64,000 nucleotides of DNA, taken from IMG/VR virus record IMGVR_UViG_3300025930_000008, positions 1 to 64,000 of that record; one strand, given 5' to 3'. The position numbers and the translations under genes are program-made. Source of the DNA: a virus. How positions within the stretch are numbered: position 1 is the first letter of the stretch; every line of letters starts with the position of its first letter. Below the pieces are notes generated by a model that saw only the letters and a list, made by a program, of their open reading frames with translations, did not search any database and had not been told where the DNA came from. Positions 13,613-46,024 of the stretch are shown piece by piece.

Positions 13613-16600
13613 CTTCCTCTATAGGCTCATGCTCAGCATTGGGATCACCGTGAATGTTTGGGTCAAGCGCATGTAACCCATCAACGTTAGGGAAGGGTAT
13701 AGAACGACGGTCATAAGTGCCATACAGACCTGCATAGCCATCCGGATGAATATGGAATCGACGGTCATACGCGCTATCCCAATCATCCTGAATGCCCATA
13801 TTTTTCTCATAAGAATCATGGATAGGTTCGCCATCCTGATAATTGTCATAAAGATTCCATGTATGGTAATTACCATTCTGATCCATCGTACCTTTGCCCC
13901 AAGTACCAGGCTTCCAATTCAGGCGATGGCCCGGAGCATGAGTCACAGGAAAATCGCTGCTAGGCTGCGACTGCGACCAATTAGTATACGATGATAAATC
14001 CTCGGGGAAGTCTCTGAAATATGCTTCAACTTCCTCTGACGGCCATTGCTGAATCTCTTGCCACTCGTCTGAACGGCCAGCCGTCCTAGCTCGGATCAAC
14101 CCAAGCAATGCTTCTTTAGTGTTCAACTGCGGATTGTCCAATACCTGCTCATGTAGGAATTGGAGCGTCTTACCAATCTCAGGCCCCTGGGGAATACCCG
14201 CAGCCAATAGGTCACTACCATTCACCGCTAGCTGTGAAAGCGCCGTAGGGACGTTTCCTGCCCGCACAGAGTTGATTAGCGTGCGATGCTGGTCCACCGA
14301 AAGCGATGGATCAGTCGGATACTCAGACTTTCCGTCTTGGTCAGCCTGTCGCAAAATAAGCAGCCTATCCGCTAGGTCCCCCGTCTTATTTAGGAACCGG
14401 CGAGCGCCCTTTTCAGTATTGAAACCGGGGAACATATGGTGCATGATGAGGGCTGAGATAGGACTGATACGAGCATTAGGGTACCTTAGCTCCCCTAGCC
14501 TCGCTGCCGCCATATCCGCACCGATTGTTTCGTGAGTGCCACCGATACCGGGTGCCTTTTGGTAGAAGTGTCCCGAAACATTATTGCTGCCGCAATTCTC
14601 ACATACCTCAGCTTCACCGGGATGGGCGTGGTAGCAGTCCCTACACTCTGACCACCGGCTCGCAGGTTTTCCGATATCGTGCAGGAGTGCCGCCAACTTG
14701 AGGTCGGGGTCGTGTGGTGCGAGTTTTTGGGCATGTTCTAATACACTCAGTAGGTGCTGATCGAGTAGCTGCTCATGATGAGGATTCTTCTGGTCATAGT
14801 CTCGCGTTGCCTCTACCTCAGGGAAGATATATTTCATGAGGCCAGTATCCATCGCTAGCCTCATTGCGCGAGCCGTATCTACATCTTTGTGATTCCCGTC
14901 ATCCTCGTAGCCAAACATCTTATCTAGCTCTGTGCGAATACGGTCATTCGGTAGATTTTGCAGAGCGTGAGCATTATCCATCATCTGATCCTCTGTTTCA
15001 GAATTCGGGATCAAGCCATGCTTGGCTACAGCGGTAAGGGCACGCATAGTCCGTAGAGGGTCATCAGAAAGAGACTTGGTATGAAGGCTTCGTAGAGTTC
15101 TTCTTTTAATATCTGACAAACCCCCAAAGGGATCAAGAAGCTGACCTGTAGACAGGTCAACAGCCATAGCATTAGCGGTAAAGTCACGACGGTATAAATC
15201 TTCCTCGGGCGTCATTGTGTGGTCAGCGTCAATAGCAAAGTCCTTATGCCCACCGCCACCGGTAGCCCGCTCTCTACGCGGGATAGCAATTTCTACTTCC
15301 TTACCCTTGCCACGACCACCTTCGTGATAGCGGAACACACCGAAATCCTTACCGGTGAGGTCTACGCCACCCTTATTCTGCTTGCCCAATGCGGCTAGGA
15401 TACGATTTACTTCATCGGGATGAATACCCGTCACCATCAGGTCTAAATCGTTAGGCTCTTTGCCTAGTAGGGCATCACGCACAGCGCCACCCACGACATA
15501 CACATCGCCACCGGCAGCCTCTAAAGCCTTCCATGCGCGGAAAACGATAGGGTCAGCCGCAGCTAACGCCTGCACGTAGCCACCAATATCCTGACCGGCT
15601 AGCTTAGTCTGCTTGCCAGAATCGTCGGTTAGGTCTACTGACTTAATCTCCATGTGCGGATGATTGTAATACCACAACTCAAGCATGTGACGCACGGTAT
15701 AGGGCATATTGGTCATTGACCGGATATGCACCTTGCCACCAGGCTCATAAGTACCTTCTACTATGCCACCAGGGGTGAATTGGCCGGGGATATCAGACTG
15801 CTTCGTTCCCGGCTTCCCAATAGTTATTTCATCCTCTTGAATGTCATAAATGAACGGAATAGGAGCCGCGATCTGATCCTTACCTTCATCTGCCTTACCG
15901 GTAATAAACTCCCAGCCAGACATGCCACGACCCTCAGAATCCTCGGTTGCGTCATCCTCAGCATAAGGCTCATGCGGGATCAGTACCTTACGGATATTCT
16001 CCAAATGCTGTGGGCCGGTGCGCATACGTAGGCCACGCACACCTGGGTCCTCAACATACTCATCCTCTGGCGGGTCTACCCCTACCCATCCCTCATGGCT
16101 GTCCCTAAATGGAGGCCACCCCATATCCTCATAAAGATCATGGTGATAGTCACCCGGAGGGCCTAAAACAACGTGATTGAGCTTATAGTTGTAGACTACT
16201 GGCCTACGCCAACCAAACTCGCTCATATCAGCTTGGCCCGGGGCGTGCTTTACTGTGATCTGAGGTAATTCAGCAGATTCGTGGAACGATGGCATTTCAT
16301 GGAAATGAGGCGGGAAAGTCGCATCCATATCCAACCAGGCTGTATCCTTAGTGGGGTCATCATGGTTATCCCCCATAGGTTCCTCATTGGTCCTATGACG
16401 CAGGTATAGATTCCACGTAGGGAATAGGCGCTCACAGTCTGGACACTTGAACACGCCTCCGGGCTGACGCTCGTCCTTAGGCTCTTCAAACATATTATGC
16501 TCATCGGGGTTATTGAAAGTGCCAGCGCCAATGCTGTCAATCTCCATATCCTCGATAGTTTTCAGACCTGAGTCATTTCCTGCAATTATGGTCAATCCGT

Positions 16601-17189
16601 TGTCTGAGGCCCATTCGGCTAATGCCTCTATAGGCACTGTCCCGTAAAGGAAGGCTTCCTTGCCCCGTATATGAGCAGCGCCGCTAGAATTTTTTAAGGC
16701 ACTTTTTCTCCTGGCTAGGTTAGCGACCCCATCCTCATATGCGATGTAGTAGCTTTTTACAGGAGCAAACTCAGAACCCGTGTCAACCGGCTCACCTTGT
16801 AGGTCGGTCATGCCTCCCCACTGCCACCCGGCTGTTTCAGTGTAATCCTTGAGGATACGGGCTAATCCGTGGGCAGCTACATTTCCGGTAATGCGCCAAG
16901 AAGCCTTACCCAAATCGACGTGAACAGTACCCATAGCTGTAGGCCCAACATGATCTGCACGTACACCGGCATGGCTTGCTAGCTCGTCTAGTTCGTGATC
17001 CTCAGAAATGTGAAATTGACCGTTGCCATAGAACCATGTATAGTCCTCGACACCAGCCTTTTCCAACCAGTCAGGCCCACCACCCGGAGGCGTGGACTTA
17101 CCATCTATTGTCTCTGGTAGCTCACCGGGGTATGGCTCAGTCGCCCAGCCACCGGCCCCGCCACCATCTGCTGCTGTCCAGAGAGTCAT
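13593..17189 (-). CDS. cca: multi-domain protein containing a class II CCA-adding tRNA nucleotidyltransferase and HD domain
   Basis: VYVVGGAVRDALLG, DLDL, EEDLYRRDFTANAMA, DDPLRTMRA, LLHDIGKP. Confidence 0.9.
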   Translation of the reverse strand: MTLWTAADGGGAGGWATEPYPGELPETIDGKSTPPGGGPDWLEKAGVEDYTWFYGNGQFHISEDHELDELASHAGVRADHVGPTAMGTVHVDLGKASWRITGNVAAHGLARILKDYTETAGWQWGGMTDLQGEPVDTGSEFAPVKSYYIAYEDGVANLARRKSALKNSSGAAHIRGKEAFLYGTVPIEALAEWASDNGLTIIAGNDSGLKTIEDMEIDSIGAGTFNNPDEHNMFEEPKDERQPGGVFKCPDCERLFPTWNLYLRHRTNEEPMGDNHDDPTKDTAWLDMDATFPPHFHEMPSFHESAELPQITVKHAPGQADMSEFGWRRPVVYNYKLNHVVLGPPGDYHHDLYEDMGWPPFRDSHEGWVGVDPPEDEYVEDPGVRGLRMRTGPQHLENIRKVLIPHEPYAEDDATEDSEGRGMSGWEFITGKADEGKDQIAAPIPFIYDIQEDEITIGKPGTKQSDIPGQFTPGGIVEGTYEPGGKVHIRSMTNMPYTVRHMLELWYYNHPHMEIKSVDLTDDSGKQTKLAGQDIGGYVQALAAADPIVFRAWKALEAAGGDVYVVGGAVRDALLGKEPNDLDLMVTGIHPDEVNRILAALGKQNKGGVDLTGKDFGVFRYHEGGRGKGKEVEIAIPRRERATGGGGHKDFAIDADHTMTPEEDLYRRDFTANAMAVDLSTGQLLDPFGGLSDIKRRTLRSLHTKSLSDDPLRTMRALTAVAKHGLIPNSETEDQMMDNAHALQNLPNDRIRTELDKMFGYEDDGNHKDVDTARAMRLAMDTGLMKYIFPEVEATRDYDQKNPHHEQLLDQHLLSVLEHAQKLAPHDPDLKLAALLHDIGKPASRWSECRDCYHAHPGEAEVCENCGSNNVSGHFYQKAPGIGGTHETIGADMAAARLGELRYPNARISPISALIMHHMFPGFNTEKGARRFLNKTGDLADRLLILRQADQDGKSEYPTDPSLSVDQHRTLINSVRAGNVPTALSQLAVNGSDLLAAGIPQGPEIGKTLQFLHEQVLDNPQLNTKEALLGLIRARTAGRSDEWQEIQQWPSEEVEAYFRDFPEDLSSYTNWSQSQPSSDFPVTHAPGHRLNWKPGTWGKGTMDQNGNYHTWNLYDNYQDGEPIHDSYEKNMGIQDDWDSAYDRRFHIHPDGYAGLYGTYDRRSIPFPNVDGLHALDPNIHGDPNAEHEPIEEDEDDWS

Positions 17190-34766: not shown

Positions 34767-34839
34767 TAGCTCCGGTAGGAATTGAACCTACGCATGGAGG
34801 CTTATGAAACCTCTGCCTTAACCACTTGGCTACGGAGCC
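34767..34839 (-). tRNA. tRNA-Met(CAT), elongator (or Ile2)
   Basis: cloverleaf, loop TTCATAA. Confidence 0.85.
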
Positions 34840-34888
34840 AGGAGGGACCTGAGTTATTCATCCTCTTGAGGCACGGTCCCAATGCCTA

Positions 34889-34962
34889 CGGGATCGACGG
34901 GACTTGAACCCGCGACCTCCTGCGTGACAGGCAGGCGCTCTAACCGACTGAGCTACGACCCC
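34889..34962 (-). tRNA. tRNA-Asp(GTC)
   Basis: cloverleaf, loop CTGTCAC. Confidence 0.95.
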
Positions 34963-35309
34963 TATGCTTGACCCCACTGACCAGCCCGAACTAAATCCAT
35001 TAGGCTACCGCCAGCTTCGATCCAGATAGTCAACGCTAGCTGAGCTATCTGTGCTTCTTTATTATTCGGAATCCTGATATGATCCTTGCTTGCTACCGCC
35101 TGCATCTTCGCCACGATATAATGGTGAACGTTACGGTGTCCAGTAGGACAGAGCGGTACAGTCTCGGGATGCCACAAACCTATGCCGGTGTCAGGTCGCC
35201 AGAACTTCTGCCACGCTTGAGGCACTACATGATGTAGCTCTTGGGCTATAGGTTTGGGCCTATGGAACATATGCGCATCGCATGTGCGCGCTGTTGTCAC
35301 AGGTATCAT
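34962..35309 (-). CDS. HNH-like protein
   Basis: ELHHVVP...LCPTGHRNVH. Confidence 0.6.
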   Translation of the reverse strand: MIPVTTARTCDAHMFHRPKPIAQELHHVVPQAWQKFWRPDTGIGLWHPETVPLCPTGHRNVHHYIVAKMQAVASKDHIRIPNNKEAQIAQLALTIWIEAGGSLMDLVRAGQWGQA

Positions 35310-35317
35310 ACGTATTA

Positions 35318-35388
35318 AGCACCCGAAGGGAATCGAACCCTCAATCTCTGCTTGGAAGGCAGGGGTTATACCATTTAACTACGAGTGC
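35318..35388 (-). tRNA. tRNA-Gly(TCC)
   Basis: cloverleaf, loop CTTCCAA. Confidence 0.9.
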
Positions 35389-35663
35389 ATGTTACGACAG
35401 GTCCAGCAAAGGTAATCATCCATGGCTGCTCGGCGTCCGCAACCATTCCCGCAGCGATTGGAAGCCACCATCCTCTTGACATTCTCGTCGGGCGTAGCCT
35501 TGACATTCGTAGCATTCAAGAAGATGCTTGATGATCGCCTCGCACTCCGCGCTGCTAATTGGCGGGTCTGTTGGTGGACGCCCACCCATCGCTTGTATCC
35601 TTTGAGATAACGTCCTTTCCGCCACTTACGCTTCGCTCCCTGTAGTGGTTTCTGTTGTGGCAT
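35379..35663 (-). CDS. hypothetical protein with C-terminal Zn ribbon
   Basis: CGNGC...DDYLCWTCR; stop is TAG at nt 8-10 of tRNA-Gly. Confidence 0.6.
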   Translation of the reverse strand: MPQQKPLQGAKRKWRKGRYLKGYKRWVGVHQQTRQLAARSARRSSSIFLNATNVKATPDENVKRMVASNRCGNGCGRRAAMDDYLCWTCRNMHS

Positions 35664-35664
35664 A

Positions 35665-35736
35665 TGGAGGATGAGGGAATCGAACCCTCAACTCCTGCGT
35701 GCAAGGCAGGCATGTTCCCGTTAGCACTAATCCCCC
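35665..35736 (-). tRNA. tRNA-Ala(TGC)
   Basis: G3:U70, loop CTTGCAC. Confidence 0.9.
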
Positions 35737-35945
35737 GCGTTGACTGGCTCAATTATGCCAGGCATGGCCCATCTTGTCAAGGCTGTTCTTCGACAGTCTG
35801 AGCATAGGTAGTCATCCCATGGTAAGAGTACAGGTTCACCGCACTCAGGACATGCTACCCCGTATTTATTCAACAACGTCTGTTCCGCTTTGCGTGCAGC
35901 CTGAGCGTAATAATCCCGCCACAATTGCGTAGTCGGGTCTACCAT
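35727..35945 (-). CDS. hypothetical protein with Zn ribbon
   Basis: CPEC...DDYLCSDCR; stop inside tRNA-Ala. Confidence 0.6.
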   Translation of the reverse strand: MVDPTTQLWRDYYAQAARKAEQTLLNKYGVACPECGEPVLLPWDDYLCSDCRRTALTRWAMPGIIEPVNAGD

Positions 35946-35949
35946 ATCA

Positions 35950-36022
35950 AGCCGTCCAGGGGACTTGAACCCCTAACCCCCTGCTTACAAGGCAGGCGCT
36001 CTGCCAATTGAGCTAGGACGGC
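35950..36022 (-). tRNA. tRNA-Thr(TGT)
   Basis: cloverleaf, loop CTTGTAA. Confidence 0.95.
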
Positions 36023-36024
36023 AG

Positions 36025-36669
36025 CTAGTGGAGCGCTGCCCATGTGCGCGCCCCAACTGTTCCATCTGCGGGTAGATTATGTGCCCGCTGGAACGCCTTG
36101 ACTGCTCGCTCAGTATTCTTTCCAAAGAATGGATTGTATCGGTTGCTGTTCGGCTTACCAGTGGCACCGGTTGAGAAATCTCGGATGCCATTATCATACA
36201 GAAGTTTCTTGAGCCGGACAACCGATGGACCCTTGGACTTATACTTGAGTACAGGGTCTACGTTGGCATCCTTGACAGCCGGGTAGCTACCGGGCTTCCA
36301 TTTAATATGCCACCACTCACTAGGAGCATCTGACCATCGTTTCGCAAAACCGTACTTGGCTCCGATCTGATCCACGATGTGACGCATTTGCGGTGTAGCA
36401 AGATCGACCGCCAGCCCCCATCCGTGATTTGAAGTACCTGGGTGGGCAGCGAGATTACCACGTCCTGACCGCCACAAATTCCATAGGTATTGCTGCTGTG
36501 CGTACGTCCGGTACGAGGACATACCGCCAGTTGGTCGAAGAGTAACCCCATACTTACGAACACTCTCCGCGTTCATTGCGTTCCATGCCTTTGCCGCGTC
36601 CTTTCGTAGACGGCCACCGGCAATGTCGCCTAGAGCAACGCCGGGTAGTCTGCCATTAAGGTAAGCCAT
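36025..36669 (-). CDS. endolysin: M15 (VanY-like) peptidase + PG-binding domain
   Basis: SYRTYAQQ, PGTSNHGWGLAVD, EWWH; ADGTVGARTW. Confidence 0.9.
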   Translation of the reverse strand: MAYLNGRLPGVALGDIAGGRLRKDAAKAWNAMNAESVRKYGVTLRPTGGMSSYRTYAQQQYLWNLWRSGRGNLAAHPGTSNHGWGLAVDLATPQMRHIVDQIGAKYGFAKRWSDAPSEWWHIKWKPGSYPAVKDANVDPVLKYKSKGPSVVRLKKLLYDNGIRDFSTGATGKPNSNRYNPFFGKNTERAVKAFQRAHNLPADGTVGARTWAALH

Positions 36670-36704
36670 TCCATAAACTTACCCACCAGCATGGAAATGA
36701 AAAA

Positions 36705-36775
36705 CTGGGGAACTAGGATTCGAACCTAGACGCTGAGTTCCAAAGACTCATGTGCTGCCGTTACACTATTCCCCA
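36705..36775 (-). tRNA. tRNA-Gln(TTG)
   Basis: cloverleaf, loop CTTTGGA. Confidence 0.9.
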
Positions 36776-37071
36776 TCGGCGTAGCCAGGCTCAGGGTTAG
36801 AAGGTTCTTCGTTATCCATCCTGCGTAGACGCAGAACCATTTCACGAAGTTCCTTATCAGCCTTGTCCTGCGCTGCCTCAGTACGTGACGACTGCCAGCT
36901 TGACCAGTGAGCCACAACAATAGCATACAATGATAGCCAGGTAACAAAGAGAACTTGGTCACCAAAAGCTAAGGCTAATGGTATAGAAACTATCAGCCAG
37001 AAGATAGCAAACCAGCCGTGCAATCTCATGGCATGCTGTGAGTCAGCTAACCAGTTATGTACCTTCTTCAT
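36766..37071 (-). CDS. 2-TM membrane protein (start revised to MKKVHN)
   Basis: two TM helices; upstream extension lies inside the RNase P RNA. Confidence 0.55.
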   Translation of the reverse strand: MKKVHNWLADSQHAMRLHGWFAIFWLIVSIPLALAFGDQVLFVTWLSLYAIVVAHWSSWQSSRTEAAQDKADKELREMVLRLRRMDNEEPSNPEPGYADGE

Positions 37072-37087
37072 ACATATTACATTGAGT

Positions 37088-37361
37088 TGTGAATGAAAAC
37101 AGTAGGCGGGATTCTGTTCTATCCATGCATCCATCTATGCTCTCCACCTAGGGGATGCCCTTCCCCGGCTTGAGATTGCATCGCTTCGCTGACGGCAGAG
37201 GTACAAGCGCCCGCACCTATTTGTTGTGGCGGTAGGCGACCGCCTGTCGCTAAGGCTCCCTCCATTTTTACCCGCGCTCGTATCCCTTCCAGGGGATATG
37301 GCTCACGCAATGTCCCGACCTTCCTCGATATTTCTACCGCGCATGGTCGTAATCATTCACA
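37088..37361 (-). ncRNA. rnpB: RNase P RNA (compact, ~274 nt)
   Basis: P1 UGUGAAUGA/UCAUUCACA; P2 CCAUGC/GCAUGG; CR-I GAGGAAGGUCGGGA pairing with CR-V ACAGAAUCCCGCCUA (P4); P5 CAUUGC/GCGAUG followed by CAA; CR-IV AGAUGGAUG. Confidence 0.85.
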
Positions 37362-37401
37362 CTTAATGTTTATCGTCCACCAATAAACATATTATCGCCT
37401 C

Positions 37402-37566
37402 CTACCAGCGTCGTCCCCAACGGCCATCAGTGCCGCCGCCGAAGTAACTAAACAGTAGAACAACCAACAGCACAACAACTAGAATCCAAATCAGCTTGGT
37501 GAAAACAAAACCACCAACGACTGCTAGGACAACTAGGATTAGAAGTAGCAATAGTAATAGGTCCAT
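37402..37566 (-). CDS. small hydrophobic protein (actinobacterial type)
   Basis: MDLLLLLLLILVVLAVVGGFVFTKLIWILVVV...GRWGRRW; SD GGGAGG. Confidence 0.7.
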   Translation of the reverse strand: MDLLLLLLLILVVLAVVGGFVFTKLIWILVVVLLVVLLFSYFGGGTDGRWGRRW

Positions 37567-37609
37567 GATCCTCCCTTCATGCTATTAGCATACAGGAGGG
37601 CACGGATAA

Positions 37610-37680
37610 AGCGGCTAGCGGGAATCGAACCCGCAAATCTTGCATGGCAAGCAAGTAGGTTACCGTTACATCATAGCCGC
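37610..37680 (-). tRNA. tRNA-Gly(GCC)
   Basis: loop TTGCCAT. Confidence 0.9.
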
Positions 37681-37682
37681 AA

Positions 37683-37754
37683 CGCCCCTAATAGGAATCG
37701 AACCCATCCCTTGTGATCCGAAGTCACACGCGCTATCCAATACACCATAGGGGC
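37683..37754 (-). tRNA. tRNA-Arg(TCG)
   Basis: loop CTTCGGA. Confidence 0.9.
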
Positions 37755-37755
37755 A

Positions 37756-37827
37756 TACCCCCGGTAGGAATCGAACCTACGCACTCGGTTCCGTAGACCG
37801 ACGCTCTATCCACTGAGCTACGAGGGC
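37756..37827 (-). tRNA. tRNA-Arg(ACG)
   Basis: loop CTACGGA. Confidence 0.9.
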
Positions 37828-38013
37828 ACGTTCAGGTGCAATGACAGCACCATTGTTTACTAATTCCTGCGGGCTGTTATGGTAGTCACCATCATAACTA
37901 TGCTCATCCATGCGATACCAAACCGTAGATTCATCTACTCTTGTGATGGTACCCCATCCAGTATCTACCCAATACCCATTGTTGGGTAGGTATATCTTCC
38001 GCCCAACAGACAT
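37777..38013 (-). CDS. hypothetical protein reading into tRNA-Arg
   Basis: MSVGRKIYL...; last 51 nt lie inside the tRNA. Confidence 0.5.
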   Translation of the reverse strand: MSVGRKIYLPNNGYWVDTGWGTITRVDESTVWYRMDEHSYDGDYHNSPQELVNNGAVIAPERALVAQWIERRSTEPSA

Positions 38014-38029
38014 AAGAGAATGGCGCTCT

Positions 38030-38701
38030 TTACGCAAGCGCCGCGAGAGCCATTGATACTTCGTGGGCAACGCTCGACTCAGCGGGTTCAAACTTACCCT
38101 CCATCCAGTCTTTGACAAGCCTAGCTTCATAGACTGAGCTAGACCCACGACCGATTAGTATGAGTAGCTTGGGACGCTGCTCGGACAGTGCCGTTAGGGC
38201 ACGGTCAGCAAACGCCTTTTCCTGTTCCGTGAGCAAATGAACGATAGATTTGGGTGTACCATTTCTGTCGTGAAGGTCACGGTGACAGTCTATGCAAACA
38301 GGGATGCAGTTTTCCTTGCGGTTAGACCACACTCTCTCGTAGGAATCTAGCTCTCGCAGAATCCAACGGTTGACAAAGTGGTGCTTGGTACTGTCGCCTT
38401 CCTTACCACAAAGTCTACAGGGTGGAGCAACTCTTCTCTGCTCTCTGAACTTATCCCTGCGCCTGCGTATGAGGTCAGGTATCTCGGGAATCTGACCAAG
38501 CGCTTCCCTGAGTCGCTTAAGACATTCAGCCTGCTTAATGCCAGCCTCAAGCAAATCTTCTAGGTCCACATTCTCAACGGACGCCAGCAATTCAAGCTGT
38601 TCATCCGTAGCCTTCTGATGGCTCTGGTTTATCTCAAACCAGTGATGCGGATTGAGGCATGGACTATCACAGCCGATGCCGATGTGCCTTGCGCGACTCA
38701 A
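38030..38701 (-). CDS. HNH-domain protein
   Basis: CRLC...KHHFV...NCIPVCIDCHRDLH. Confidence 0.7.
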   Translation of the reverse strand: MSRARHIGIGCDSPCLNPHHWFEINQSHQKATDEQLELLASVENVDLEDLLEAGIKQAECLKRLREALGQIPEIPDLIRRRRDKFREQRRVAPPCRLCGKEGDSTKHHFVNRWILRELDSYERVWSNRKENCIPVCIDCHRDLHDRNGTPKSIVHLLTEQEKAFADRALTALSEQRPKLLILIGRGSSSVYEARLVKDWMEGKFEPAESSVAHEVSMALAALA

Positions 38702-38715
38702 ACCTTCCCCCTTTC

Positions 38716-39024
38716 TTACGTTTCGGTATCCTCCCTACACTTAGGGCAGAGATAGTCGTCATCGAGCGTGAAGTATGTCTCAACACACTCACCACAAGTA
38801 GCATTACCTACGGGTGGAGCCAATACCTCCACCTCTTGGATCTGATAGCGCGGGCGATGCTTCTGATGATGGTAGAGAACCGTCAGCCTACCCTCTTTGA
38901 GCGCCTTGTGATAGCTGCTCTTAGGATTGTCACGAATCTCTTTCAACCGCGCGACTACTTCATCAGGAGAGTGTAGATCACGCCCCTTCTGAACAGTCTT
39001 GGCCTTGTACCAATCAACCTGCAT
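38716..39024 (-). CDS. hypothetical protein with C-terminal Zn ribbon
   Basis: CGEC...DDYLCPKCR. Confidence 0.65.
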   Translation of the reverse strand: MQVDWYKAKTVQKGRDLHSPDEVVARLKEIRDNPKSSYHKALKEGRLTVLYHHQKHRPRYQIQEVEVLAPPVGNATCGECVETYFTLDDDYLCPKCREDTET

Positions 39025-39364
39025 CGCGGCACTCCGGGCAAAGGTAATCGTCCCCAAAGAACGGGGACTCACACTCAGCACAGGGCTTAGCACCAGGCGG
39101 AACACCTTCGTTGAGTACCATTACAGCCCAAGGCTTAGCGACGGGTTCTTCCTCATCCTTATCAGGAATCTTTACCATCATCTTCTTCCCGGTACCCATA
39201 GGAGTTTCGGGTCGGACCTTAGAGTTGTAATGAATCTCCAACTCAGAGTCAGCGTGCCTTCCAGCGCCCTTGCTAATCTTAGCCGCGTACTTCTCGGCTT
39301 CGTCCAAGGTGGCGAAGGTCTTGAGTGGGTATGCGCTTCTGACAATCACCAAGGCCACGTCCAT
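39014..39364 (-). CDS. hypothetical protein with C-terminal Zn ribbon
   Basis: CAEC...DDYLCPECR. Confidence 0.65.
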   Translation of the reverse strand: MDVALVIVRSAYPLKTFATLDEAEKYAAKISKGAGRHADSELEIHYNSKVRPETPMGTGKKMMVKIPDKDEEEPVAKPWAVMVLNEGVPPGAKPCAECESPFFGDDYLCPECRDAG

Positions 39365-39531
39365 CCGATGACAACAGGACCAATATGAAAGGTATACACC
39401 TTCCCTTGTGTCTCTGCATCGAGAATTGTCTTAGCGACAAAGAAGAATGGGATGCCCCATAGCTTCATCCTAAACTGTCCGTCGATCTGTTGCATGGCCC
39501 CAGGATACCAGGGCGTCAGGGGAAATGCAAG

Positions 39532-39604
39532 TAGCGCGTACGGGAATCGAACCCGTGTTACCGCCTTGAGAGGGCGGCGTATTAGGCCACTATACTAACG
39601 CGCC
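39532..39604 (-). tRNA. tRNA-Glu(CTC)
   Basis: loop CTCTCAA. Confidence 0.9.
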
Positions 39605-39725
39605 ATGTAGGGACGTTCATTTGTCGCTTTGGGCCACTCCCTATTAGGGGAGGTACGCTCGCCACACGTACAACTGACACGGGTTCAATACCCGCCGCCT
39701 CTTGACACGGGGTATCCGCCCGTCC

Positions 39726-40100
39726 CTAAGTTCTGTGTTCCTGGCAGAGAAAGTCACCGGGTAGCGCCGGGTCCCCACACTCTGCACAAAGTAGCTCACC
39801 ATCGAGCGGTTGGGAATTCAATGCGTCAACTCTTTCCTTGCCCGTGGCAAGAAGTGCGTACCACTTACGCTTGAACTCGGTATCCTGTAGGTTAACAGAG
39901 CCAAGGTCATGCCAACTGTTCGGTTGCTCCGTATGACCAATACAAATCCAAGCCGAACTATACTTCTTAGTTGTTTTGCCTTCTTTCTCTACGGGTGCAG
40001 CAGGCAAAGTAAACATATACCACTGATTTGCAGCTTCATGCTCAGGATATCGCATCTTCTTCGCTATCGTTTTGTTACGCAGTTCACGAATGTTACCCAT
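39726..40100 (-). CDS. hypothetical protein with C-terminal Zn ribbon
   Basis: CAEC...GDFLCQEHR; ATG 3 nt after tRNA-Lys. Confidence 0.65.
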   Translation of the reverse strand: MGNIRELRNKTIAKKMRYPEHEAANQWYMFTLPAAPVEKEGKTTKKYSSAWICIGHTEQPNSWHDLGSVNLQDTEFKRKWYALLATGKERVDALNSQPLDGELLCAECGDPALPGDFLCQEHRT

Positions 40101-40103
40101 CAA

Positions 40104-40177
40104 TACCCCCACTAGGACTCGAACCTAGAACCTTGAGATTAAAAGTCTCCTACTCTAACCAATTGAGTTATGGGGGC
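40104..40177 (-). tRNA. tRNA-Lys(TTT)
   Basis: loop CTTTTAA. Confidence 0.9.
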
Positions 40178-40185
40178 GCGTCCCC

Positions 40186-40614
40186 TCATACGAGGATGAG
40201 GGGAGTCACATCTACCGACTCTAGATGCTCAAAGTATCCATCCCACGGACGATACATTCGGTTCGTACGCTTCTGGTTATTGTCTGCGTGGCAGAGTCGC
40301 TGCGCAGTATAAGCATCCTGTAGGTCTGCCTTAACAGCCGGGATGGTCCACGCTCCATGAGAGCCGAACGTTCCTCCGGTTGTATAGGTGACGACTACTA
40401 GATAAGCATTCTGACCTGGCTCGATTTCATCGTAACCATAAATATCATCATAATCACTCAACTGCTGCGCGTCCCAGCCAGTTAGCTGAGTTGTGCTGAT
40501 CTTATTGATCGACACGGTAAGACCATAGTCTCCCTGATGGAGCCATGGTCCGTCGCCTTCCTCTGGCGGACTTATCTGGTAAGTATACTCAGAGAACTCT
40601 ACCCAATAGGTCAT
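40186..40614 (-). CDS. hypothetical phage protein
   Basis: 142 aa, YLVVVTYTTGGTFG...PWDGYFE. Confidence 0.65.
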   Translation of the reverse strand: MTYWVEFSEYTYQISPPEEGDGPWLHQGDYGLTVSINKISTTQLTGWDAQQLSDYDDIYGYDEIEPGQNAYLVVVTYTTGGTFGSHGAWTIPAVKADLQDAYTAQRLCHADNNQKRTNRMYRPWDGYFEHLESVDVTPLILV

Positions 40615-40641
40615 CGCACGACCCTTTCTTTACTTGTTAGG

Positions 40642-40714
40642 GGTGAACGACGGGAGTCGAACCCGCATCTACATGGACCACAACCATGTGCATTACCATT
40701 ATGCTACGCTCACC
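40642..40714 (-). tRNA. tRNA-His(GTG)
   Basis: G-1:C73, loop TTGTGGT. Confidence 0.9.
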
Positions 40715-40722
40715 ATGTTCAG

Positions 40723-40805
40723 TACGCCCGGTGGGATTTGAACCCACAATGCCGCAAGGCCAGAAGGGTTTAAGCCTCCCGCGTATACCGTTCCGCCACG
40801 GGCGC
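40723..40805 (-). tRNA. tRNA-Leu(TAA)
   Basis: long variable arm, loop CTTAAAC. Confidence 0.9.
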
Positions 40806-40808
40806 TAG

Positions 40809-40881
40809 CTGCCGAGCTAGGGATCGAACCTAGACTTTCCTGATCCAGAGTCAGGCGTGTTTCCAGTTACACCACTCGGCA
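40809..40881 (-). tRNA. tRNA-Gln(CTG)
   Basis: loop CTCTGGA. Confidence 0.9.
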
Positions 40882-41123
40882 ATAATCTTCCTATCCATGG
40901 CGACAATCTTACCACGGCCATTGAAATCGTGCTGTCTCAACGTCCAATAGATCGTAGGCTCATCAATATCCTCCGCCTTAGGTTTAGTTAGCTGCCAGCG
41001 TCTGGAATGCGTCCGACAAAATACCTTGCCAGGGACCACTACATGCCCACAGACATAACACATACCCGTACTATCACGTCCATGACGCTTAGGATTAAGC
41101 TCACGAAATAGTTCCTTGGTCAT
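40851..41123 (-). CDS. hypothetical Zn-finger protein reading into tRNA-Gln
   Basis: CYVC...FCRTH; ATG 2 nt after tRNA-Leu. Confidence 0.55.
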   Translation of the reverse strand: MTKELFRELNPKRHGRDSTGMCYVCGHVVVPGKVFCRTHSRRWQLTKPKAEDIDEPTIYWTLRQHDFNGRGKIVAMDRKIIAEWCNWKHA

Positions 41124-41125
41124 AG

Positions 41126-41207
41126 TACCGGGAGCGGGATTTGAACCCGCACGCTTATCAGGCATCGGGGTTTGAGGCCGACGTGTCTACCATTCCACCA
41201 TCCCGGC
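41126..41207 (-). tRNA. tRNA-Leu(CAA)
   Basis: loop CTCAAAC. Confidence 0.9.
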
Positions 41208-41215
41208 ATAGGTTA

Positions 41216-41287
41216 TAGCGCGACGGGGAATCGAACCCCGGTTACAGGCTTGAAAGGCCCGCGTCCTAACCATTAAACGACCGCGCC
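41216..41287 (-). tRNA. tRNA-Glu(TTC)
   Basis: loop CTTTCAA. Confidence 0.9.
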
Positions 41288-41363
41288 TAGCGAGAGAGTC
41301 GGATGAAGTGAACACGCAGCGTGTTCTATGAGGGTAGGATAACCGCTCTCTCATACCTACCAA

Positions 41364-41436
41364 TGGGCACGGTTGGAATCGAACCAACGACTTCCACCTT
41401 ATCAGAGTGGCGCTCTAACCGCTGAACTACGTGCCC
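41364..41436 (-). tRNA. tRNA-Ile(GAT)
   Basis: loop CTGATAA. Confidence 0.95.
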
Positions 41437-41437
41437 G

Positions 41438-42175
41438 TTAGGGTAATTGCCTTAGAGAATGCTTGCCCATCGGGATGCAAGCCTCACCATCATCATTCAA
41501 GATAGTCTCCAAGTCCTCAACTCGTAAGAAACAATCTCCGTCCAGACCCCAGGTCTTGCCCCAGGAGTTGCGCAAGCGTACCACATGAAGCTCGCCGTGT
41601 CCAGGGAATCGACGCTTGAGGGCATGACCGCGTACACAAATAGCATGACCACCGACGTGCTGTCCAGAAATGTCAAGCAGCCCGGAAGGGTCCGGGTCAA
41701 ACATGCTATCGCGCCACCAAATGCCAATTTCCACGACACCGTGGTTAGATAAGGTGGCTAGTACGTCATCAATGCTGAACGCCCAACGGTATGAGTCAAT
41801 GAACCCATACTGTTGCATGATCTTCGCACCTGACAATACAGAAGTACCATCGTTGTGCGGATTAGCGCCAGGGTATGCTCCACCCGGCCAAGGATCATTC
41901 TTTTGAGCTTCCCAATAGACCTTTTGCTCTGCAAAGCTATTGGAAATACCTCGCGTGTGATCTTTGTACGCTGAGGCGCAGTGGCTCCATGAGAAACCTA
42001 CACAAGCACCCTCTTGTCCCTGGTCTAACCAGACTGGACACTGCCAAGTCTTAGTCTTTAGCGTCTCGGGGACCAGACCACGGATATCGTAGTCCTTTGA
42101 GCGGTCATCGAACTCTTGGAGTCTATCGAGCCGCCTGTCTTGTGTATCTGTACCGTCGCGTAGAGTAGGCATCAC
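41438..42175 (-). CDS. papain-like (C1) cysteine peptidase
   Basis: DQGQEGACVGFS, GGHAI, RNSWGKTWG. Confidence 0.85.
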   Translation of the reverse strand: MMPTLRDGTDTQDRRLDRLQEFDDRSKDYDIRGLVPETLKTKTWQCPVWLDQGQEGACVGFSWSHCASAYKDHTRGISNSFAEQKVYWEAQKNDPWPGGAYPGANPHNDGTSVLSGAKIMQQYGFIDSYRWAFSIDDVLATLSNHGVVEIGIWWRDSMFDPDPSGLLDISGQHVGGHAICVRGHALKRRFPGHGELHVVRLRNSWGKTWGLDGDCFLRVEDLETILNDDGEACIPMGKHSLRQLP

Positions 42176-42194
42176 CCATTACGCTACGGAGGCA

Positions 42195-42266
42195 TGGCGA
42201 ATATTGGAGTCGAACCAATGACGCGAGGTTCTTCAGACCTCCGCTCTACCACTGAGCTAATTCGCC
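42195..42266 (-). tRNA. tRNA-Phe(GAA)
   Basis: loop CTGAAGA. Confidence 0.9.
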
Positions 42267-42348
42267 AAGTGAAGGCGGTTCGCCCCGCACCTTACGAACC
42301 CGAATCGTACGCGGTGGGCATAGGACACTAGTAATCCATTACCGCCAG

Positions 42349-42438
42349 CGGAGAGTGTAGGATTCGAACCCACGCGCCGGTTCAAGGCCGACCAACGGTT
42401 TTCAAGACCGCCCCAATAGTCCACTCTGGCAACTCTCC
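42349..42438 (-). tRNA. tRNA-Ser(TGA)
   Basis: long variable arm, loop CTTGAAA. Confidence 0.9.
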
Positions 42439-42451
42439 ATGTCGTGTATAA

Positions 42452-42871
42452 ATAAGCTGCGAGAGGCATAGCGTCCGCAGCTAAGATAGCCCGAATTGCA
42501 AGGTAAAGGTCAGGCCCTAGGCTCATCTGGCACAGCCGGGGTGTCCGTCCCTACGTAGGTTCATTCCAGGCCACGACTACCTAGCTGAAACCTATACCTC
42601 GGAGGCGTTCGCAGCCCCAAGCGGGTGAAGAACCACTTCAACCTTTAAGTTTAGAAACCTCCTGTTCGATGACAAATGATAGACATTTCAACCGACCTGA
42701 GCGTGTCCGTGGATACTGTGTTCGCACGCAGCGGTCAAGCACTCGGCCCCATATCCTTTTCGGCTGGCTACTCCGTCGCCCTTGCACAGTCATAGGTTTC
42801 TAAGGGTTCCCGCCCTCCACCTAATCTTCCCGCACAGTATGTGTCAGTCTATAAGCCTCAGGTTCTCAGCC
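42452..42871 (-). ncRNA. large structured ncRNA candidate (~420 nt)
   Basis: no credible ORF; long-range helices ACCUGAG/CUCAGGU, AUACUGUG/CACAGUAU, UUAGAAACCU/AGGUUUCUAA; 3' hairpin AGCUGCG/CGCAGCU. Confidence 0.6.
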
Positions 42872-42872
42872 A

Positions 42873-43120
42873 CTATTGGCCCTGTCCTAACCACCCTTGT
42901 AGGTGACTTTTATCTGCGACAACCTCTACATTGAGAGGGTCCCATGGTTGGGGCTGATCCCGTAGTGATTCATCCTCGGGATTTTCTGCCACAATCCAAG
43001 TGATGCCAGGATCGCTGTGAGCATACTCCCCCCAATACTTCAATGCATCGGCTTCGCTCACCACTCGGCCATACAGACCGTAGTAGTGATTCAAGATAAG
43101 GTATCTGACCTTAGTCTTGC
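42873..43120 (-). CDS. hypothetical protein (start uncertain)
   Basis: open frame between tRNA-Cys and the ncRNA. Confidence 0.4.
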
Positions 43121-43121
43121 A

Positions 43122-43192
43122 AGGCAAGGACGGGAGTCGAACCCGTGTTACAGGTTTTGCAGACCCGCGCGTAGCCATTCCGCCACCTTGCC
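43122..43192 (-). tRNA. tRNA-Cys(GCA)
   Basis: loop CTGCAAA, U73. Confidence 0.9.
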
Positions 43193-43306
43193 ATTACGTC
43201 GTAGACATTCCTCACGGTCACAATTACATGCGTTCTGACAAACGAAACCCTTGTGACACTCACAGTCTTTGATGGGCTGTTCACAAATAGTACATTTCCA
43301 TACCAT
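43148..43306 (-). CDS. small Cys-rich protein reading into tRNA-Cys
   Basis: MVWKCTICEQPIKDCEC...; ATG 2 nt after tRNA-Asn. Confidence 0.45.
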   Translation of the reverse strand: MVWKCTICEQPIKDCECHKGFVCQNACNCDREECLRRNGKVAEWLRAGLQNL

Positions 43307-43308
43307 AG

Positions 43309-43380
43309 CTCGCCGGGTAGGACTTGAACCTACAACCATTCGGTTAACAGCCGAACGCTCTGCCATTGAGCTACCGGCGA
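43309..43380 (-). tRNA. tRNA-Asn(GTT)
   Basis: loop CTGTTAA. Confidence 0.95.
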
Positions 43381-43631
43381 CTGTTGATCCAACTATCTAG
43401 ACACGCCTTATGAGTGGGCAGTAACTCCCAATCAGCGTGCCAAGTACCCTGCACAATGTCAAAGGTTTCCGTACCTTCGTCTGACCACTCGCCACCCATG
43501 CGTTGTATTTTACACGGGATTCCCTGGCGTCCTTCCTGAGCCTGTTCAACTGTAATGATACGCCAGATCGCACATTCGCTTTTATCAAAGCGGTAGTTTG
43601 CATATATTCTACCGACTAGCGGCTCTTTCAT
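43371..43631 (-). CDS. hypothetical protein
   Basis: ATG 1 nt after tRNA-Lys; stop is TAG at nt 8-10 of tRNA-Asn. Confidence 0.55.
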   Translation of the reverse strand: MKEPLVGRIYANYRFDKSECAIWRIITVEQAQEGRQGIPCKIQRMGGEWSDEGTETFDIVQGTWHADWELLPTHKACLDSWINSRR

Positions 43632-43632
43632 A

Positions 43633-43705
43633 TGCCCCCAACAGGGATCGAACCTGTGACCTTGAGATTAAGAGTCTCCTGCTCTACCGGCTGAGCTATA
43701 GGGGC
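43633..43705 (-). tRNA. tRNA-Lys(CTT)
   Basis: loop CTCTTAA. Confidence 0.95.
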
Positions 43706-43769
43706 GATGATTGGTCATTCCCCTTACCCCTAGGGAATCGTTACTGGATGGGCAACCAATCAAGTTGTA

Positions 43770-43849
43770 TGGCGGGTGGAGGAATCGAACCTCATTACGC
43801 TCTCGCCAGCTAGGTTATGAGCCTTGCTGCCCAAACCTGGGCACCCGCG
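43770..43849 (-). tRNA. atypical tRNA(CAT), initiator-like
   Basis: C1xC72 mismatch, loop CTCATAA, shrunken D-arm, extra variable arm. Confidence 0.65.
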
Positions 43850-43863
43850 TCGTAAATTTGCTA

Positions 43864-43949
43864 CGGAGAGTGGGGGATTTGAACCCCCGGTACCCACTGG
43901 ATACTCCGTCTTAGCAGGACGGTGCATTAAGCCACTCTGCCAACTCTCC
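43864..43949 (-). tRNA. tRNA-Ser(GCT)
   Basis: loop CTGCTAA. Confidence 0.9.
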
Positions 43950-44135
43950 CTGTGTGATACGTGGCACCCACGTACCCCTTTTAACTAAGGCGAAAAACTC
44001 TATCAACGTACACTTAGAACTATCCGTCAATCCATCTACACGGCCGTCTGTGTAAGTCCAATAAACTCTTTCCGTCTTAGGATCATAGAGATAATCCTTC
44101 ACCATTGCGTTCGCTTCCCAACGAAAAGAAATCAT
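43911..44135 (-). CDS. hypothetical protein reading into tRNA-Ser
   Basis: ATG 1 nt after tRNA-Arg. Confidence 0.5.
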   Translation of the reverse strand: MISFRWEANAMVKDYLYDPKTERVYWTYTDGRVDGLTDSSKCTLIEFFALVKRGTWVPRITQGELAEWLNAPSC

Positions 44136-44136
44136 A

Positions 44137-44208
44137 CGGCCCCGGTGAGAATCGAACTCACATCTATCCCTTAGGAGGGGATCGTTCTGTCCATTATACT
44201 ACAGGGCC
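44137..44208 (-). tRNA. tRNA-Arg(CCT)
   Basis: loop CTCCTAA. Confidence 0.9.
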
Positions 44209-44264
44209 AGAAGCAGGGCATTTCAGCCCCACCCACGTCACCGCTTTAGGACAACGGCTGCCTG

Positions 44265-44468
44265 TCAGATATCCATAGCGCACTGGTTAACGCAATCCCG
44301 ACAACAATTGCACACCGTATCGTAATCGCCACCGATTTCCTCTGCATACGGACAGCCATGAGGAATCTCTCCCTCATTACCGCAGTTACAGAGCGGACTG
44401 ATTGCCGATAACAACCAGTCTTTGACAACCTGCTTGTAAATATGCATACGTATTTGCACAGCAGGCAT
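44265..44468 (-). CDS. Cys-rich small protein
   Basis: HGCPYAEEI...CNCCRDCVNQCAMDI. Confidence 0.6.
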   Translation of the reverse strand: MPAVQIRMHIYKQVVKDWLLSAISPLCNCGNEGEIPHGCPYAEEIGGDYDTVCNCCRDCVNQCAMDI

Positions 44469-44540
44469 AGGCCAGGATGGATTTGAACCATCGACCCGCA
44501 CCTTATAAGAGTGCCGCTCTAACCCCTGAGCTACTGGCCC
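44468..44540 (-). tRNA. tRNA-Ile(TAT)
   Basis: loop CTTATAA; body similar to Ile(GAT). Confidence 0.9.
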
Positions 44541-44549
44541 AATTAGTTA

Positions 44550-44728
44550 GAGGATCGTATATGGGGGACTTACTTCATGGATAGGTACGCACTACGCCGG
44601 GGCGACCACACCCCTCTCGGCCAGCACGCATACTCCTAGATGTAGTCAACATCGTTAGTGACCTATATCAATCCGCTTACCCTTATCCCACCTGCGCACT
44701 GTGGGCGGCAATTATCCGTCCGATCCTC
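44550..44728 (-). ncRNA. unassigned structured RNA (~180 nt)
   Basis: closing stem GAGGATCG/CGATCCTC, inner ATAGGT-CACTA/TAGTG-ACCTAT. Confidence 0.5.
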
Positions 44729-44729
44729 A

Positions 44730-44801
44730 AGCCCGCGAGGGGAATCGAACCCCTATCCCTGCTTTACGAAAGCAGTATAATAGCCGTTATACTACGCGGG
44801 C
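44730..44801 (-). tRNA. tRNA-Thr(CGT)
   Basis: loop TTCGTAA. Confidence 0.9.
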
Positions 44802-44899
44802 GACTTACTTATCAGGCACAATCATAGTGCCTTTACAGATGGGACATACCCTACCATTGTTAAGGATGCCCCCTTTCATCTTGCATTTACAATCCATAG

Positions 44900-45349
44900 T
44901 GGAGGTGGGCGGAATTGAACCGCCGTCCTGCGTACACTTGTTGACTCAGTTTCTAGCAGCTTTGTAATACAATACTGGCAACCGGTTCTGAGCCGCCTAC
45001 CCTTACTCTACCACAAGATACGGCAGACTCATGCTAGTGACTGTTTGAAATAGTCGGGAGCAGCCTGTTGTTCCGTACACCCTGCTGTCGAGATTACTCA
45101 CCACGCAATGGAAATACCATTAGAGTGGAGCCGAGTAAGCCAATTAGATTGACCGTCTAATCTTTCCAAACAAGGATTTGGGACTTTATACCCCGGCCAC
45201 GCTTTCTGTTCCTAGGTCCGTGGCTCCTGACCCGAGCGGACTAAGCCGCTAGAGCAAACGTATGAGTGTCTGCAATTATTGTTAGTGGTAGGCCACTACC
45301 CGCTGCACTAAGGCAACCGCATCTTACACAGTCGATGCCTGTCACCCCC
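44900..45349 (-). ncRNA. ssrA: tmRNA, tag (A)ADTHTFALAA
   Basis: 5' GGGGGTGACAGGCATCGAC, 3' GGCGGTTCAATTCCGCCCACCTCCA with G3:U; resume context ATAATT-GCA; tag at 45273-45241. Confidence 0.95.
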
Positions 45350-45687: not shown

Positions 45688-45757
45688 TAGACCGGGCAGG
45701 ATTCGAACCTGCAATGAACAATGATAAAGATTGTTTGTGTACCGTACACACCGGTCA
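45688..45757 (-). tRNA. non-canonical tRNA-like RNA with UUA (ochre) anticodon
   Basis: canonical T-arm GCAGG-TTCGAAT-CCTGC, 6-bp anticodon stem, loop CTTTATC, U1xU72. Confidence 0.55.
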
Positions 45758-45995: not shown

Positions 45996-46024
45996 AGTTT
46001 AGCCGATGTTCTGGCGACTGTCAA
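45996..46024 (-). promoter_or_regulatory. sigma70-type promoter within the RNA cluster
   Basis: TTGACA-N17-TAAACT. Confidence 0.65.

Follow-up and report, generated by a model that had tools for sequence, protein, structure and literature searches.

Small open reading frames begin flush with the 3′ ends of CCA-less tRNA genes in the tRNA array of a phage genome

Open reading frames abut tRNA 3′ ends in a one-strand array

The DNA analysed here (the window; 51.6% GC) covers 64 kb from the start of one virus record from an uncultured phage, IMGVR_UViG_3300025930_000008 (107,022 bp), which is estimated to be about 67% complete. Between 34.7 and 48.1 kb it carries 37 tRNA genes and one transfer-messenger RNA (tmRNA) gene, a set on which ARAGORN and Rfam agree. 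All of them lie on the minus strand, and the features of the array share this strand with only tiny gaps between them. CCA is encoded in none of the 38 genes. Our subject is a group of small open reading frames (ORFs) whose ATG stands flush with the end of one of these RNA genes.

To place the 3′ ends we put the discriminator 19 nucleotides (nt) after T54 (the T-loop+19 rule), accepting only positions that gave a 7-bp acceptor stem and U8. Measured against this register and against Rfam, the 3′ ends given by ARAGORN are displaced by a single base in some 14 of the 38 genes, and its boundaries by themselves would give wrong gaps. With the corrected discriminators of the 37 tRNAs and the tmRNA, nine ATGs are flush, eight at gaps of 1–4 nt and one at gap −1. 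A first-pass annotation, made from the letters of the window, had listed nine ATGs at 0–4 nt after the discriminator of a CCA-less tRNA or tmRNA, and under the T-loop+19 placement every one of its coordinates is right.

All of the genes described in this paragraph are on the minus strand. At gap 1, after a T trailer, the 94-amino-acid (aa) Ala ORF (35379..35663) follows tRNA-Ala(tgc) (35665..35736, discriminator A at 35665), has a zinc-ribbon C-terminus and overlaps tRNA-Gly(tcc) by 10 nt, its stop being the TAG at positions 8–10 of that tRNA. The 86-aa Lys-ctt ORF (43371..43631) follows tRNA-Lys(ctt) (43633..43705, discriminator A at 43633) in the same way and stops at the TAG at positions 8–10 of tRNA-Asn, and the 74-aa Arg-cct ORF (43911..44135) follows tRNA-Arg(cct) (44137..44208, discriminator G at 44137) and extends 39 nt into tRNA-Ser(gct). 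At gap 2, after a CT trailer, we find the 90-aa Leu-caa ORF (40851..41123), which follows tRNA-Leu(caa) (41126..41207, discriminator A at 41126) and extends 31 nt into tRNA-Gln(ctg); a putative Cys-rich ORF of 52 aa, the Asn ORF (43148..43306), which follows tRNA-Asn(gtt) (43309..43380, discriminator G at 43309) and extends 45 nt into tRNA-Cys; and a putative Cys-rich ORF of 30 aa, the tmRNA ORF (44805..44897), which follows the tmRNA (44900..45349, discriminator A at 44900; Rfam RF00023, 68.8 bits against a gathering threshold of 47) and ends 3 nt short of tRNA-Thr(cgt). The 124-aa Lys-ttt ORF (39726..40100), with a C-terminal zinc ribbon, starts at gap 3 after tRNA-Lys(ttt) (40104..40177, discriminator A at 40104, trailer TTG), and the 72-aa Thr ORF (35727..35945), a zinc-ribbon protein with its stop within tRNA-Ala, starts at gap 4 after tRNA-Thr(tgt) (35950..36022, discriminator T at 35950, trailer TGAT). 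Finally, in the gap −1 case the discriminator A of tRNA-Ile(tat) (44468..44540) at 44468 is itself the A of the ATG of a putative Cys-rich ORF of 67 aa, the Ile-tat ORF (44265..44468), which has an alternative in-frame ATG at codon 8.

The 3′ ends of these ORFs are equally close to their neighbours. Six of the nine have their stop codon 10–45 nt inside the next tRNA (3′ ends 35379, 35727, 40851, 43148, 43371 and 43911), and in three of the six the stop is the TAG at tRNA positions 8–10. Throughout the array, ORF ends adjoin the next tRNA or overlap it by 1–45 nt, and the tRNA-to-tRNA spacers measure 1, 2, 3, 3, 8 and 9 nt. The ORF at 34962–35309 has its last base in common with tRNA-Asp.

Flush starts exceed chance and are restricted to ATG

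As a null we used 6-nt windows at random same-strand positions, 4.0–4.9% of which hold an ATG that opens at least 30 codons. Against this null the ATG-to-tRNA distance, on which the first-pass annotation had built its proposal, is clearly enriched, with a flush ATG at 9 of the 38 tRNA and tmRNA ends (binomial P 1.4e-5 to 7.7e-5). In the profile of starts by offset, nine fall at offsets 0–5 and no later offset holds more than one. At gaps 1–4 alone, where 2.8 ATG triplets would be expected, there are 8 (P 0.008); each of them opens 30 codons or more (P 2e-4 to 2e-3), and seven reach 50 or more (P 1e-4 to 3e-3). The same count made for other codons gives 0 for GTG, 2 for TTG and 0–2 for each of six control codons. 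Of the four instances of the gap −1 class (A73-T74-G75), three open just 3–7 codons, so that the Ile-tat case is weak on its own. The junction arrangement as a whole is real, non-random and confined to ATG.

Other first ORFs after tRNAs start farther away, two at 8 nt and six with leaders of 14–36 nt. A 179-aa gene on the minus strand (GTG start at 34758) begins 8 nt after tRNA-Met, and a GGAG lies 11 nt upstream of it in the acceptor strand of that tRNA; a 115-aa gene, also on the minus strand (ATG start at 35309), begins 8 nt after tRNA-Gly(tcc).

Flush starts recur in related phages

Related IMG/VR contigs were recovered by way of the ribonucleotide reductase (RNR) gene that adjoins the array. 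The closest relative, G001 (IMGVR_UViG_3300037423_000972), has a syntenic array of 39 tRNAs. In G001, G002, G004 and G005 we observed 13 more ATGs at 1–4 nt after a discriminator, opening ORFs of 49–127 codons. With 13 junctions among 122 unique tRNAs and a null of 4.0% (P 1.2e-3), the short ATG-to-tRNA distance noted at first pass is thus enriched in related phages as well. It peaks at gap 2, where nine of the 13 lie as CT-ATG or TT-ATG, with about one per offset elsewhere, and the start codon is ATG at all 13 junctions and GTG at none. The junctions involve different tRNAs and unrelated proteins. The sole orthologous pair that is flush in both phages is tRNA-Thr(tgt) with its ORF, at gap 3 in G001, while the flush genes that follow tRNA-Lys(ttt) in the window phage and in G001 are different ones. 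By this comparison, the flush arrangement is a design to which the clade returns repeatedly, not a chance layout that was simply handed down.

We examined other tRNA-bearing phages as controls. In T5, KVP40 and phiCbK, where CCA is encoded in essentially all tRNAs, no ATG lies within 4 nt of a discriminator. Mycobacteriophage Bxz1, in which 24 of 27 tRNAs are CCA-less, all with C74, has two such ATGs at gaps 2 and 4; its genome is 65% GC, and these two are therefore indistinguishable from chance.

Most flush ORFs are probable genes

None of the nine ORFs belongs to a Pfam or PHROG family. The Ala ORF has an orthologue in G001 (L081:7812–8096; 57% identical, E 3e-34) with a conserved region from codon 6, and its own next in-frame start comes no earlier than codon 27; the orthologue of the Thr ORF (G001, L081:6897–7106; 42% identical, E 4e-14) aligns from residue 1. 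For the Lys-ttt ORF there are 24 matches at E ≤ 1e-3, of which about 20 are full-length homologues of 101–174 aa (E down to 1e-26), and residues 1–15 of the protein are conserved with a 51%-identical homologue. An 86%-identical variant of the Arg-cct ORF keeps the entire frame from the same Met, with codons 1–10 open. The Lys-ctt protein is called as a gene on 11 contigs, and a word-index search with this ORF recovered only itself. The Ile-tat ORF has a weak tblastn match to L038 (35%, E 2e-4), and no homologue was found for the Asn ORF. Searches for related loci with the Lys-ttt ORF, the Lys-ctt ORF and an array-internal 223-aa protein found none, and the alignment of the Lys-ttt family gave no match when searched against viral and metagenome contigs.

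Scored against a null from a frame-specific Markov model, four ORFs fall in the top few per cent for coding potential (Lys-ttt 1.2%, Arg-cct 1.8%, Leu-caa 2.2%, Lys-ctt 2.4%); the remaining five are intermediate, and the Asn ORF, which reaches the null's 87th percentile, is ambiguous. The Ala, Asn and Lys-ctt ORFs contain no other possible in-frame start within at least their first 26 codons. Alternative starts occur at codon 16 in Lys-ttt, 21 in Leu-caa, 11 in Arg-cct, 4 and 8 in Ile-tat, 8 (TTG) in Thr and 7 in the tmRNA ORF, and shorter public gene calls exist that begin at codon 11 and at codon 16. Setting aside the Asn ORF, the Ile-tat ORF and the 30-codon tmRNA ORF, we regard the other six as real genes that would use the junction ATG.

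A zinc-ribbon module, CxxC-x(5-11)-D[YF]LCxxCR, recurs in otherwise unrelated small proteins of the array (35379–35663, 35727–35945, 39726–40100, 40851–41123, 38716–39105 and 39014–39364) and also in the relative (ORFs of L081). It occupies the C-terminus and in one case the N-terminus.

tRNA 3′ ends and the processing machinery

Position 74 is T in 24 of the 38 genes, and in the other 14 it is C followed by T. The relatives are similar, with CT in 56, TT in 30 and TA in 10 of their 122 tRNAs at positions 74–75. RNase Z is said to prefer U74, reportedly on the strength of a 2003 paper. The junction ATG always follows the minimal T, CT or TT trailer that the tRNAs of the clade carry, and this pyrimidine trailer (Y74-T75) looks like a clade-wide determinant of 3′ processing. 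The shortest tRNA-to-tRNA spacers (T, TT, CTA and TAA) also retain it. In CCA-less precursors RNase Z cleaves on the 3′ side of the discriminator, a B. subtilis example carrying U74 A75 (PMC1874595), and in Streptomyces coelicolor the cleavage falls between C74 and C75 (PMC4681348).

Being CCA-less, the tRNAs need a CCA-adding activity. One 1198-aa protein of the window combines a CCA-adding (tRNA nucleotidyltransferase) module with an HD domain (13593..17189, minus strand; Pfam PolyA_pol at E 1e-24, PolyA_pol_RNAbd, HD and tRNA_NucTran2_2). An RNase P-like RNA at 37091..37358 (minus strand) scores below threshold (RF00373, 32.9 bits against a gathering threshold of 84; E 4.6e-7 in a 3-kb search). 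In G001 a weak match to RF00010 (L081:5293–5788, plus strand; 25.4 bits, E 1e-5) lies in the syntenic place between tRNA-Gly(gcc) and tRNA-Gln(ttg), which speaks for the candidate, itself a sub-gathering hit. A search of the 107-kb record, about 67% complete, for RNase Z and other metallo-beta-lactamase proteins (Lactamase_B, Lactamase_B_2) gave no match. The first-pass annotation had pictured a self-contained RNA-processing system; the CCA enzyme and the tmRNA (68.8 bits) bear out part of this picture, but the RNase P RNA remains sub-gathering and, since the record encodes no RNase Z, the system is not self-contained. It is possible that the host supplies RNase Z.

Start signals and promoters

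Shine-Dalgarno (SD) words (GGAG, GAGG or AGGA) stand upstream of 21 of 93 likely genes (23%), compared with 11% at random. Thus 77% of the genes have none, and absence of an SD is normal in this genome. The earlier observation that flush starts leave no room for an SD is correct for gaps of 0–4 nt, but it does not set the junctions apart. Many gene-to-gene junctions are TAATG overlaps. The first 36 nt of the flush ORFs have a mean minimum free energy of −4.2 kcal/mol, like known gene starts (−4.3) and above random windows (−6.0; P 0.04). We rejected translational coupling through the tRNA as a general mechanism, since three junctions (Leu-caa, Lys-ctt and tmRNA) have no upstream ORF within 280–315 nt.

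A sigma-70-type scan found no promoter at any of the nine junctions. The total promoter-like count, 21, is not above that in shuffles (16.4 ± 3.9), and the same holds for terminator-like counts. One motif, CTTGACAGTC, occurs 20 times where 4.2 matches would be expected: copies on the minus strand at 46016–46025, 46205–46214, 47998–48007 and 52704–52713, and 16 copies with one mismatch. It directly follows tRNA-Val(tac) and tRNA-Arg(tct) in the array, and none was found at the nine flush junctions. Its distance to the next ATG is 17–20 nt, unlike the spacing of a sigma-70 −35 box; it may be a phage promoter internal to the array or an RNA motif. Given its enrichment and its position right behind two array tRNAs, a single polycistron is not assured. 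The hexamer CTTGAC follows three tRNAs in L001.

tRNA processing as a candidate source of near-leaderless mRNAs

The explanation that we favour, and to which we would give an even chance of being right, is that tRNA processing yields near-leaderless mRNAs of the small genes. In this account the array packs small accessory protein genes and CCA-less tRNA genes closely together on one strand. Each tRNA, which as a CCA-less precursor needs 3′ cleavage in any event, would be freed by an endonuclease acting at the discriminator or immediately beyond it and then finished by the phage CCA-adding enzyme. Candidate cuts are that of RNase Z after N73, one after C74 as in Streptomyces, and an RNase E-type cut between U and AUG. 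Because the tRNAs are CCA-less, such a cut would leave a downstream RNA with a 5′-monophosphate end 0–4 nt (usually U or CU) before the AUG, and the small genes would be translated as near-leaderless mRNAs. If the C74-U75 class were cut after C74, an identical U-AUG end would result at all six TATG/CTATG junctions. We infer that the array is co-transcribed, where and by which enzyme it would be cut, and that ribosomes would initiate on the cut RNA rather than on the precursor. An AUG start is required for leaderless initiation, and a 5′ phosphate together with an AUG near the 5′ end favours leaderless translation (PMC9031893). A 3′-end endonucleolytic cut that leaves a 5′-phosphate and a leader of 0–4 nt is the most economical route to translation of these ORFs, and it is partly supported.

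Several observations weigh against this explanation. Release of near-leaderless mRNAs by tRNA maturation had been proposed in the first-pass annotation, and the real junctions, the CCA-less tRNAs and the CCA enzyme agree with it; but cleavage behind N73 would take away the A of the Ile-tat AUG, which makes that case doubtful for the model. Moreover, six of nine stops lie inside the next tRNA; RNase P, on cutting that tRNA, would take the stop codon away, and a message freed on both sides would be non-stop. For this layout, fates of a transcript that exclude each other are a better fit than clean punctuation. In G001 no tRNA directly precedes the orthologue of the Ala ORF: between it and tRNA-Gly(tcc) lies a 171-nt spacer (L081:7641–7811) that folds at −57 kcal/mol into a hairpin closing 3 nt (CTT) before the ATG. 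Adjacency to a tRNA is thus not obligatory for a given gene, and flush starts may occur after non-tRNA helices too. As SD-less starts are the norm of the genome, initiation in the host may be independent of the leader or of a free end. The record encodes no RNase Z, and both a cut by that enzyme and leaderless translation would rest with a host that the RNR and DnaE matches do not identify. Finally, leaders of a few nucleotides already lower leaderless translation in E. coli (PMC9031893).

Some of these points would be met if the arrangement reflected compaction under pressure towards a small genome, with alternative fates, each copy of the transcript being either processed to tRNAs, with its messages destroyed, or translated unprocessed or misfolded, with the tRNA as an SD-less leader or with its helix in the place of the SD duplex. 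We take this to be possible but rather unlikely. The array is packed to the base, with spacers of 1–9 nt, ORF ends overlapping by 1–45 nt and TAATG gene junctions; six of the nine ORFs keep their stop only if the next tRNA stays attached; functional genes of T5 show the same 3′ overlaps; 77% of the genes do without an SD; and the hairpin 3 nt before the G001 orthologue of the Ala ORF suggests that a helix followed by 2–4 nt and an AUG is tolerated or even favoured. Compaction, however, leaves unexplained the absence of gap 0, the constant T/CT trailer before the ATG and the exclusive use of ATG, and in T5 it stops at 13–25 nt. A folded acceptor stem 1–4 nt from the AUG should, moreover, clash with the mRNA exit path of the 30S subunit, as expected from the structure of the ribosome.

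It is less probable still, and in our view unlikely, that the junction ATGs go unused, the proteins starting further inside the frame (at ATG, GTG or TTG) or certain ORFs not being expressed, so that the flush ATG would be a by-product of frames that fill the spacers. Alternative in-frame starts are present in the Lys-ttt, Leu-caa, Arg-cct, Ile-tat, Thr and tmRNA ORFs, public gene calls begin at codons 11 and 16, five ORFs have merely intermediate coding scores and none has a Pfam or PHROG family. However, the Ala, Asn and Lys-ctt ORFs offer no other start in at least the first 26 codons, the N-termini of the Lys-ttt (residues 1–15), Thr and Ala proteins are conserved, the 86% variant of Arg-cct leaves codons 1–10 open, and neither the excess of ATG at gaps 1–4 nor its recurrence in relatives would be explained. 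Promoters hidden in the tRNA genes and firing at the ATG would give primary, triphosphate leaderless transcripts independently of processing. Such transcripts are common in some phyla (PMC4681348), and the enrichment of CTTGACAGTC, directly after two array tRNAs, means that internal promoters may exist. The empty sigma-70-type scan at the nine junctions, a total count no higher than in shuffles and the absence of CTTGACAGTC from the junctions all argue against promoters of this kind, and their −10 and −35 elements would fall in conserved T-arm and anticodon-arm sequence that is common to tRNAs without a flush ORF; we consider them highly improbable.

The favoured explanation, release of near-leaderless mRNAs by tRNA processing, can be extended to a bolder proposal that we think improbable. 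The phage clade would run a mitochondria-like module in which an RNase P-like RNA (possibly its own), a 3′ endonuclease and the CCA enzyme create translatable, 5′-phosphate leaderless messages. As most messages would lose their stop to the next tRNA, the phage tmRNA would join the circuit, releasing or tagging the stop-less microproteins, and tRNA supply would be coupled to the output of accessory proteins.

Comparison with known systems

The closest parallel is the tRNA punctuation of animal mitochondrial transcripts, reportedly described by Ojala, Montoya and Attardi in 1981. In both systems tRNAs abut protein genes on one strand, the tRNAs are CCA-less and are completed by a CCA-adding enzyme, and endonucleolytic 3′ excision gives, or in the phage would give, mRNAs that start at the AUG or within a few nucleotides of it. 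Unlike mitochondria, this is a phage of a bacterium, its 37 tRNAs far outnumber the genes that they flank, about a quarter of them have a flush gene, and a pyrimidine trailer of 1–4 nt is retained. Mitochondrial messages end in U or UA stumps that are completed by polyadenylation, whereas six of the nine phage ORFs run 10–45 nt into the next tRNA, and the two bases that precede the overlapped tRNAs are not T or TA.

The flush ORFs resemble bacterial leaderless mRNAs in being AUG-only, without an SD and with a very short or absent leader if the 5′ end is where we place it (PMC9031893). Bacterial leaderless mRNAs are favoured by a 5′ phosphate, which an RNase Z or RNase E product would carry; they are, however, mostly primary transcripts, whereas the phage ends would come from tRNA maturation and would usually bear 1–2 extra nucleotides. 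In the MazF model leaderless messages are made by endonuclease cleavage, a model that is contested and was not reproduced by others (PMC9031893).

Phage T5 (NC_005859) has a similar one-strand array, with about 24 tRNAs among small ORFs, homing nucleases and stable RNAs, and its coding sequences likewise overlap the next tRNA at their ends (T5.069 and tRNA-Asn by 24 nt, hegC and tRNA-Ser2 by 14 nt, T5.057 and tRNA-Met by 6 nt). However, 22 of 23 T5 tRNAs encode CCA, and each annotated coding sequence after a tRNA starts 13–25 nt downstream, which leaves room for an SD; there is no flush ATG. T5 differs further in having many mapped promoters inside its array. With the substrates of RNase Z and of the S. 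coelicolor cleavage the phage shares CCA-less 3′ ends in all 38 genes and U74 or C74-U75, so that cleavage behind N73 or C74 would yield U-AUG or CU-AUG. It differs from the bacteria of these examples in that the enzyme is not encoded in the phage record and in that the trailers of those bacteria are not known to serve as messages.

In the full-text literature that we searched, no tRNA punctuation in bacteria or phages and no leaderless mRNAs made by processing were found, the returns being limited to mitochondria, plant organelles and general work on leaderless mRNAs. Should ribosomes translate the cut RNAs, the phage array would be the first system outside organelles in which leaderless mRNAs are punctuated by tRNAs and generated by processing, and phages would have a way to dispense with promoters and ribosome-binding sites for accessory genes by using the tRNA maturation machinery. 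The recurrence in relatives suggests a general design rather than a curiosity. The arrangement bears on how near to an AUG bacteria tolerate a structured RNA or a 5′ end, and on the function of leaderless mRNAs made by endonucleases, a matter of dispute ever since the MazF work. In tRNA-rich phages, such genes will be missed or given a wrong start by gene callers that demand a leader or do not allow a gene to overlap a tRNA.

Phage identity and other features of the array

Besides the CCA-adding/HD protein, the window encodes a DnaE-type polymerase and a class II RNR. A megablast of the region for close cultured phages gave matches to tRNA-Asp only, and a tblastn search for cultured-phage relatives with a 507-aa protein of the window gave no match. 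The best cultured-phage matches of the DnaE are in Gordonia phages, at only 31%, while the closest copy of the RNR, at 77%, lies on a 3.9-kb scaffold binned to a Ferruginibacter metagenome-assembled genome; that scaffold is probably phage DNA. An actinobacterial host is thus not established.

Three further features were seen in the array. An endolysin-like gene (VanY/PG_binding_1) is situated within it. A tRNA-like gene at 45688–45757 (minus strand), called tRNA-Stop by ARAGORN, has the ochre-reading anticodon UUA and a mismatched first acceptor pair. Right after tRNA-Phe, the stretch 42170–42194 (minus strand) resembles the 5′ half of a tRNA, with a 7-nt stem strand, TAGC and a D-loop-like GTAATGG; it forms the 5′ end region of a 245-aa ORF (41438–42175) and may be a tRNA remnant.

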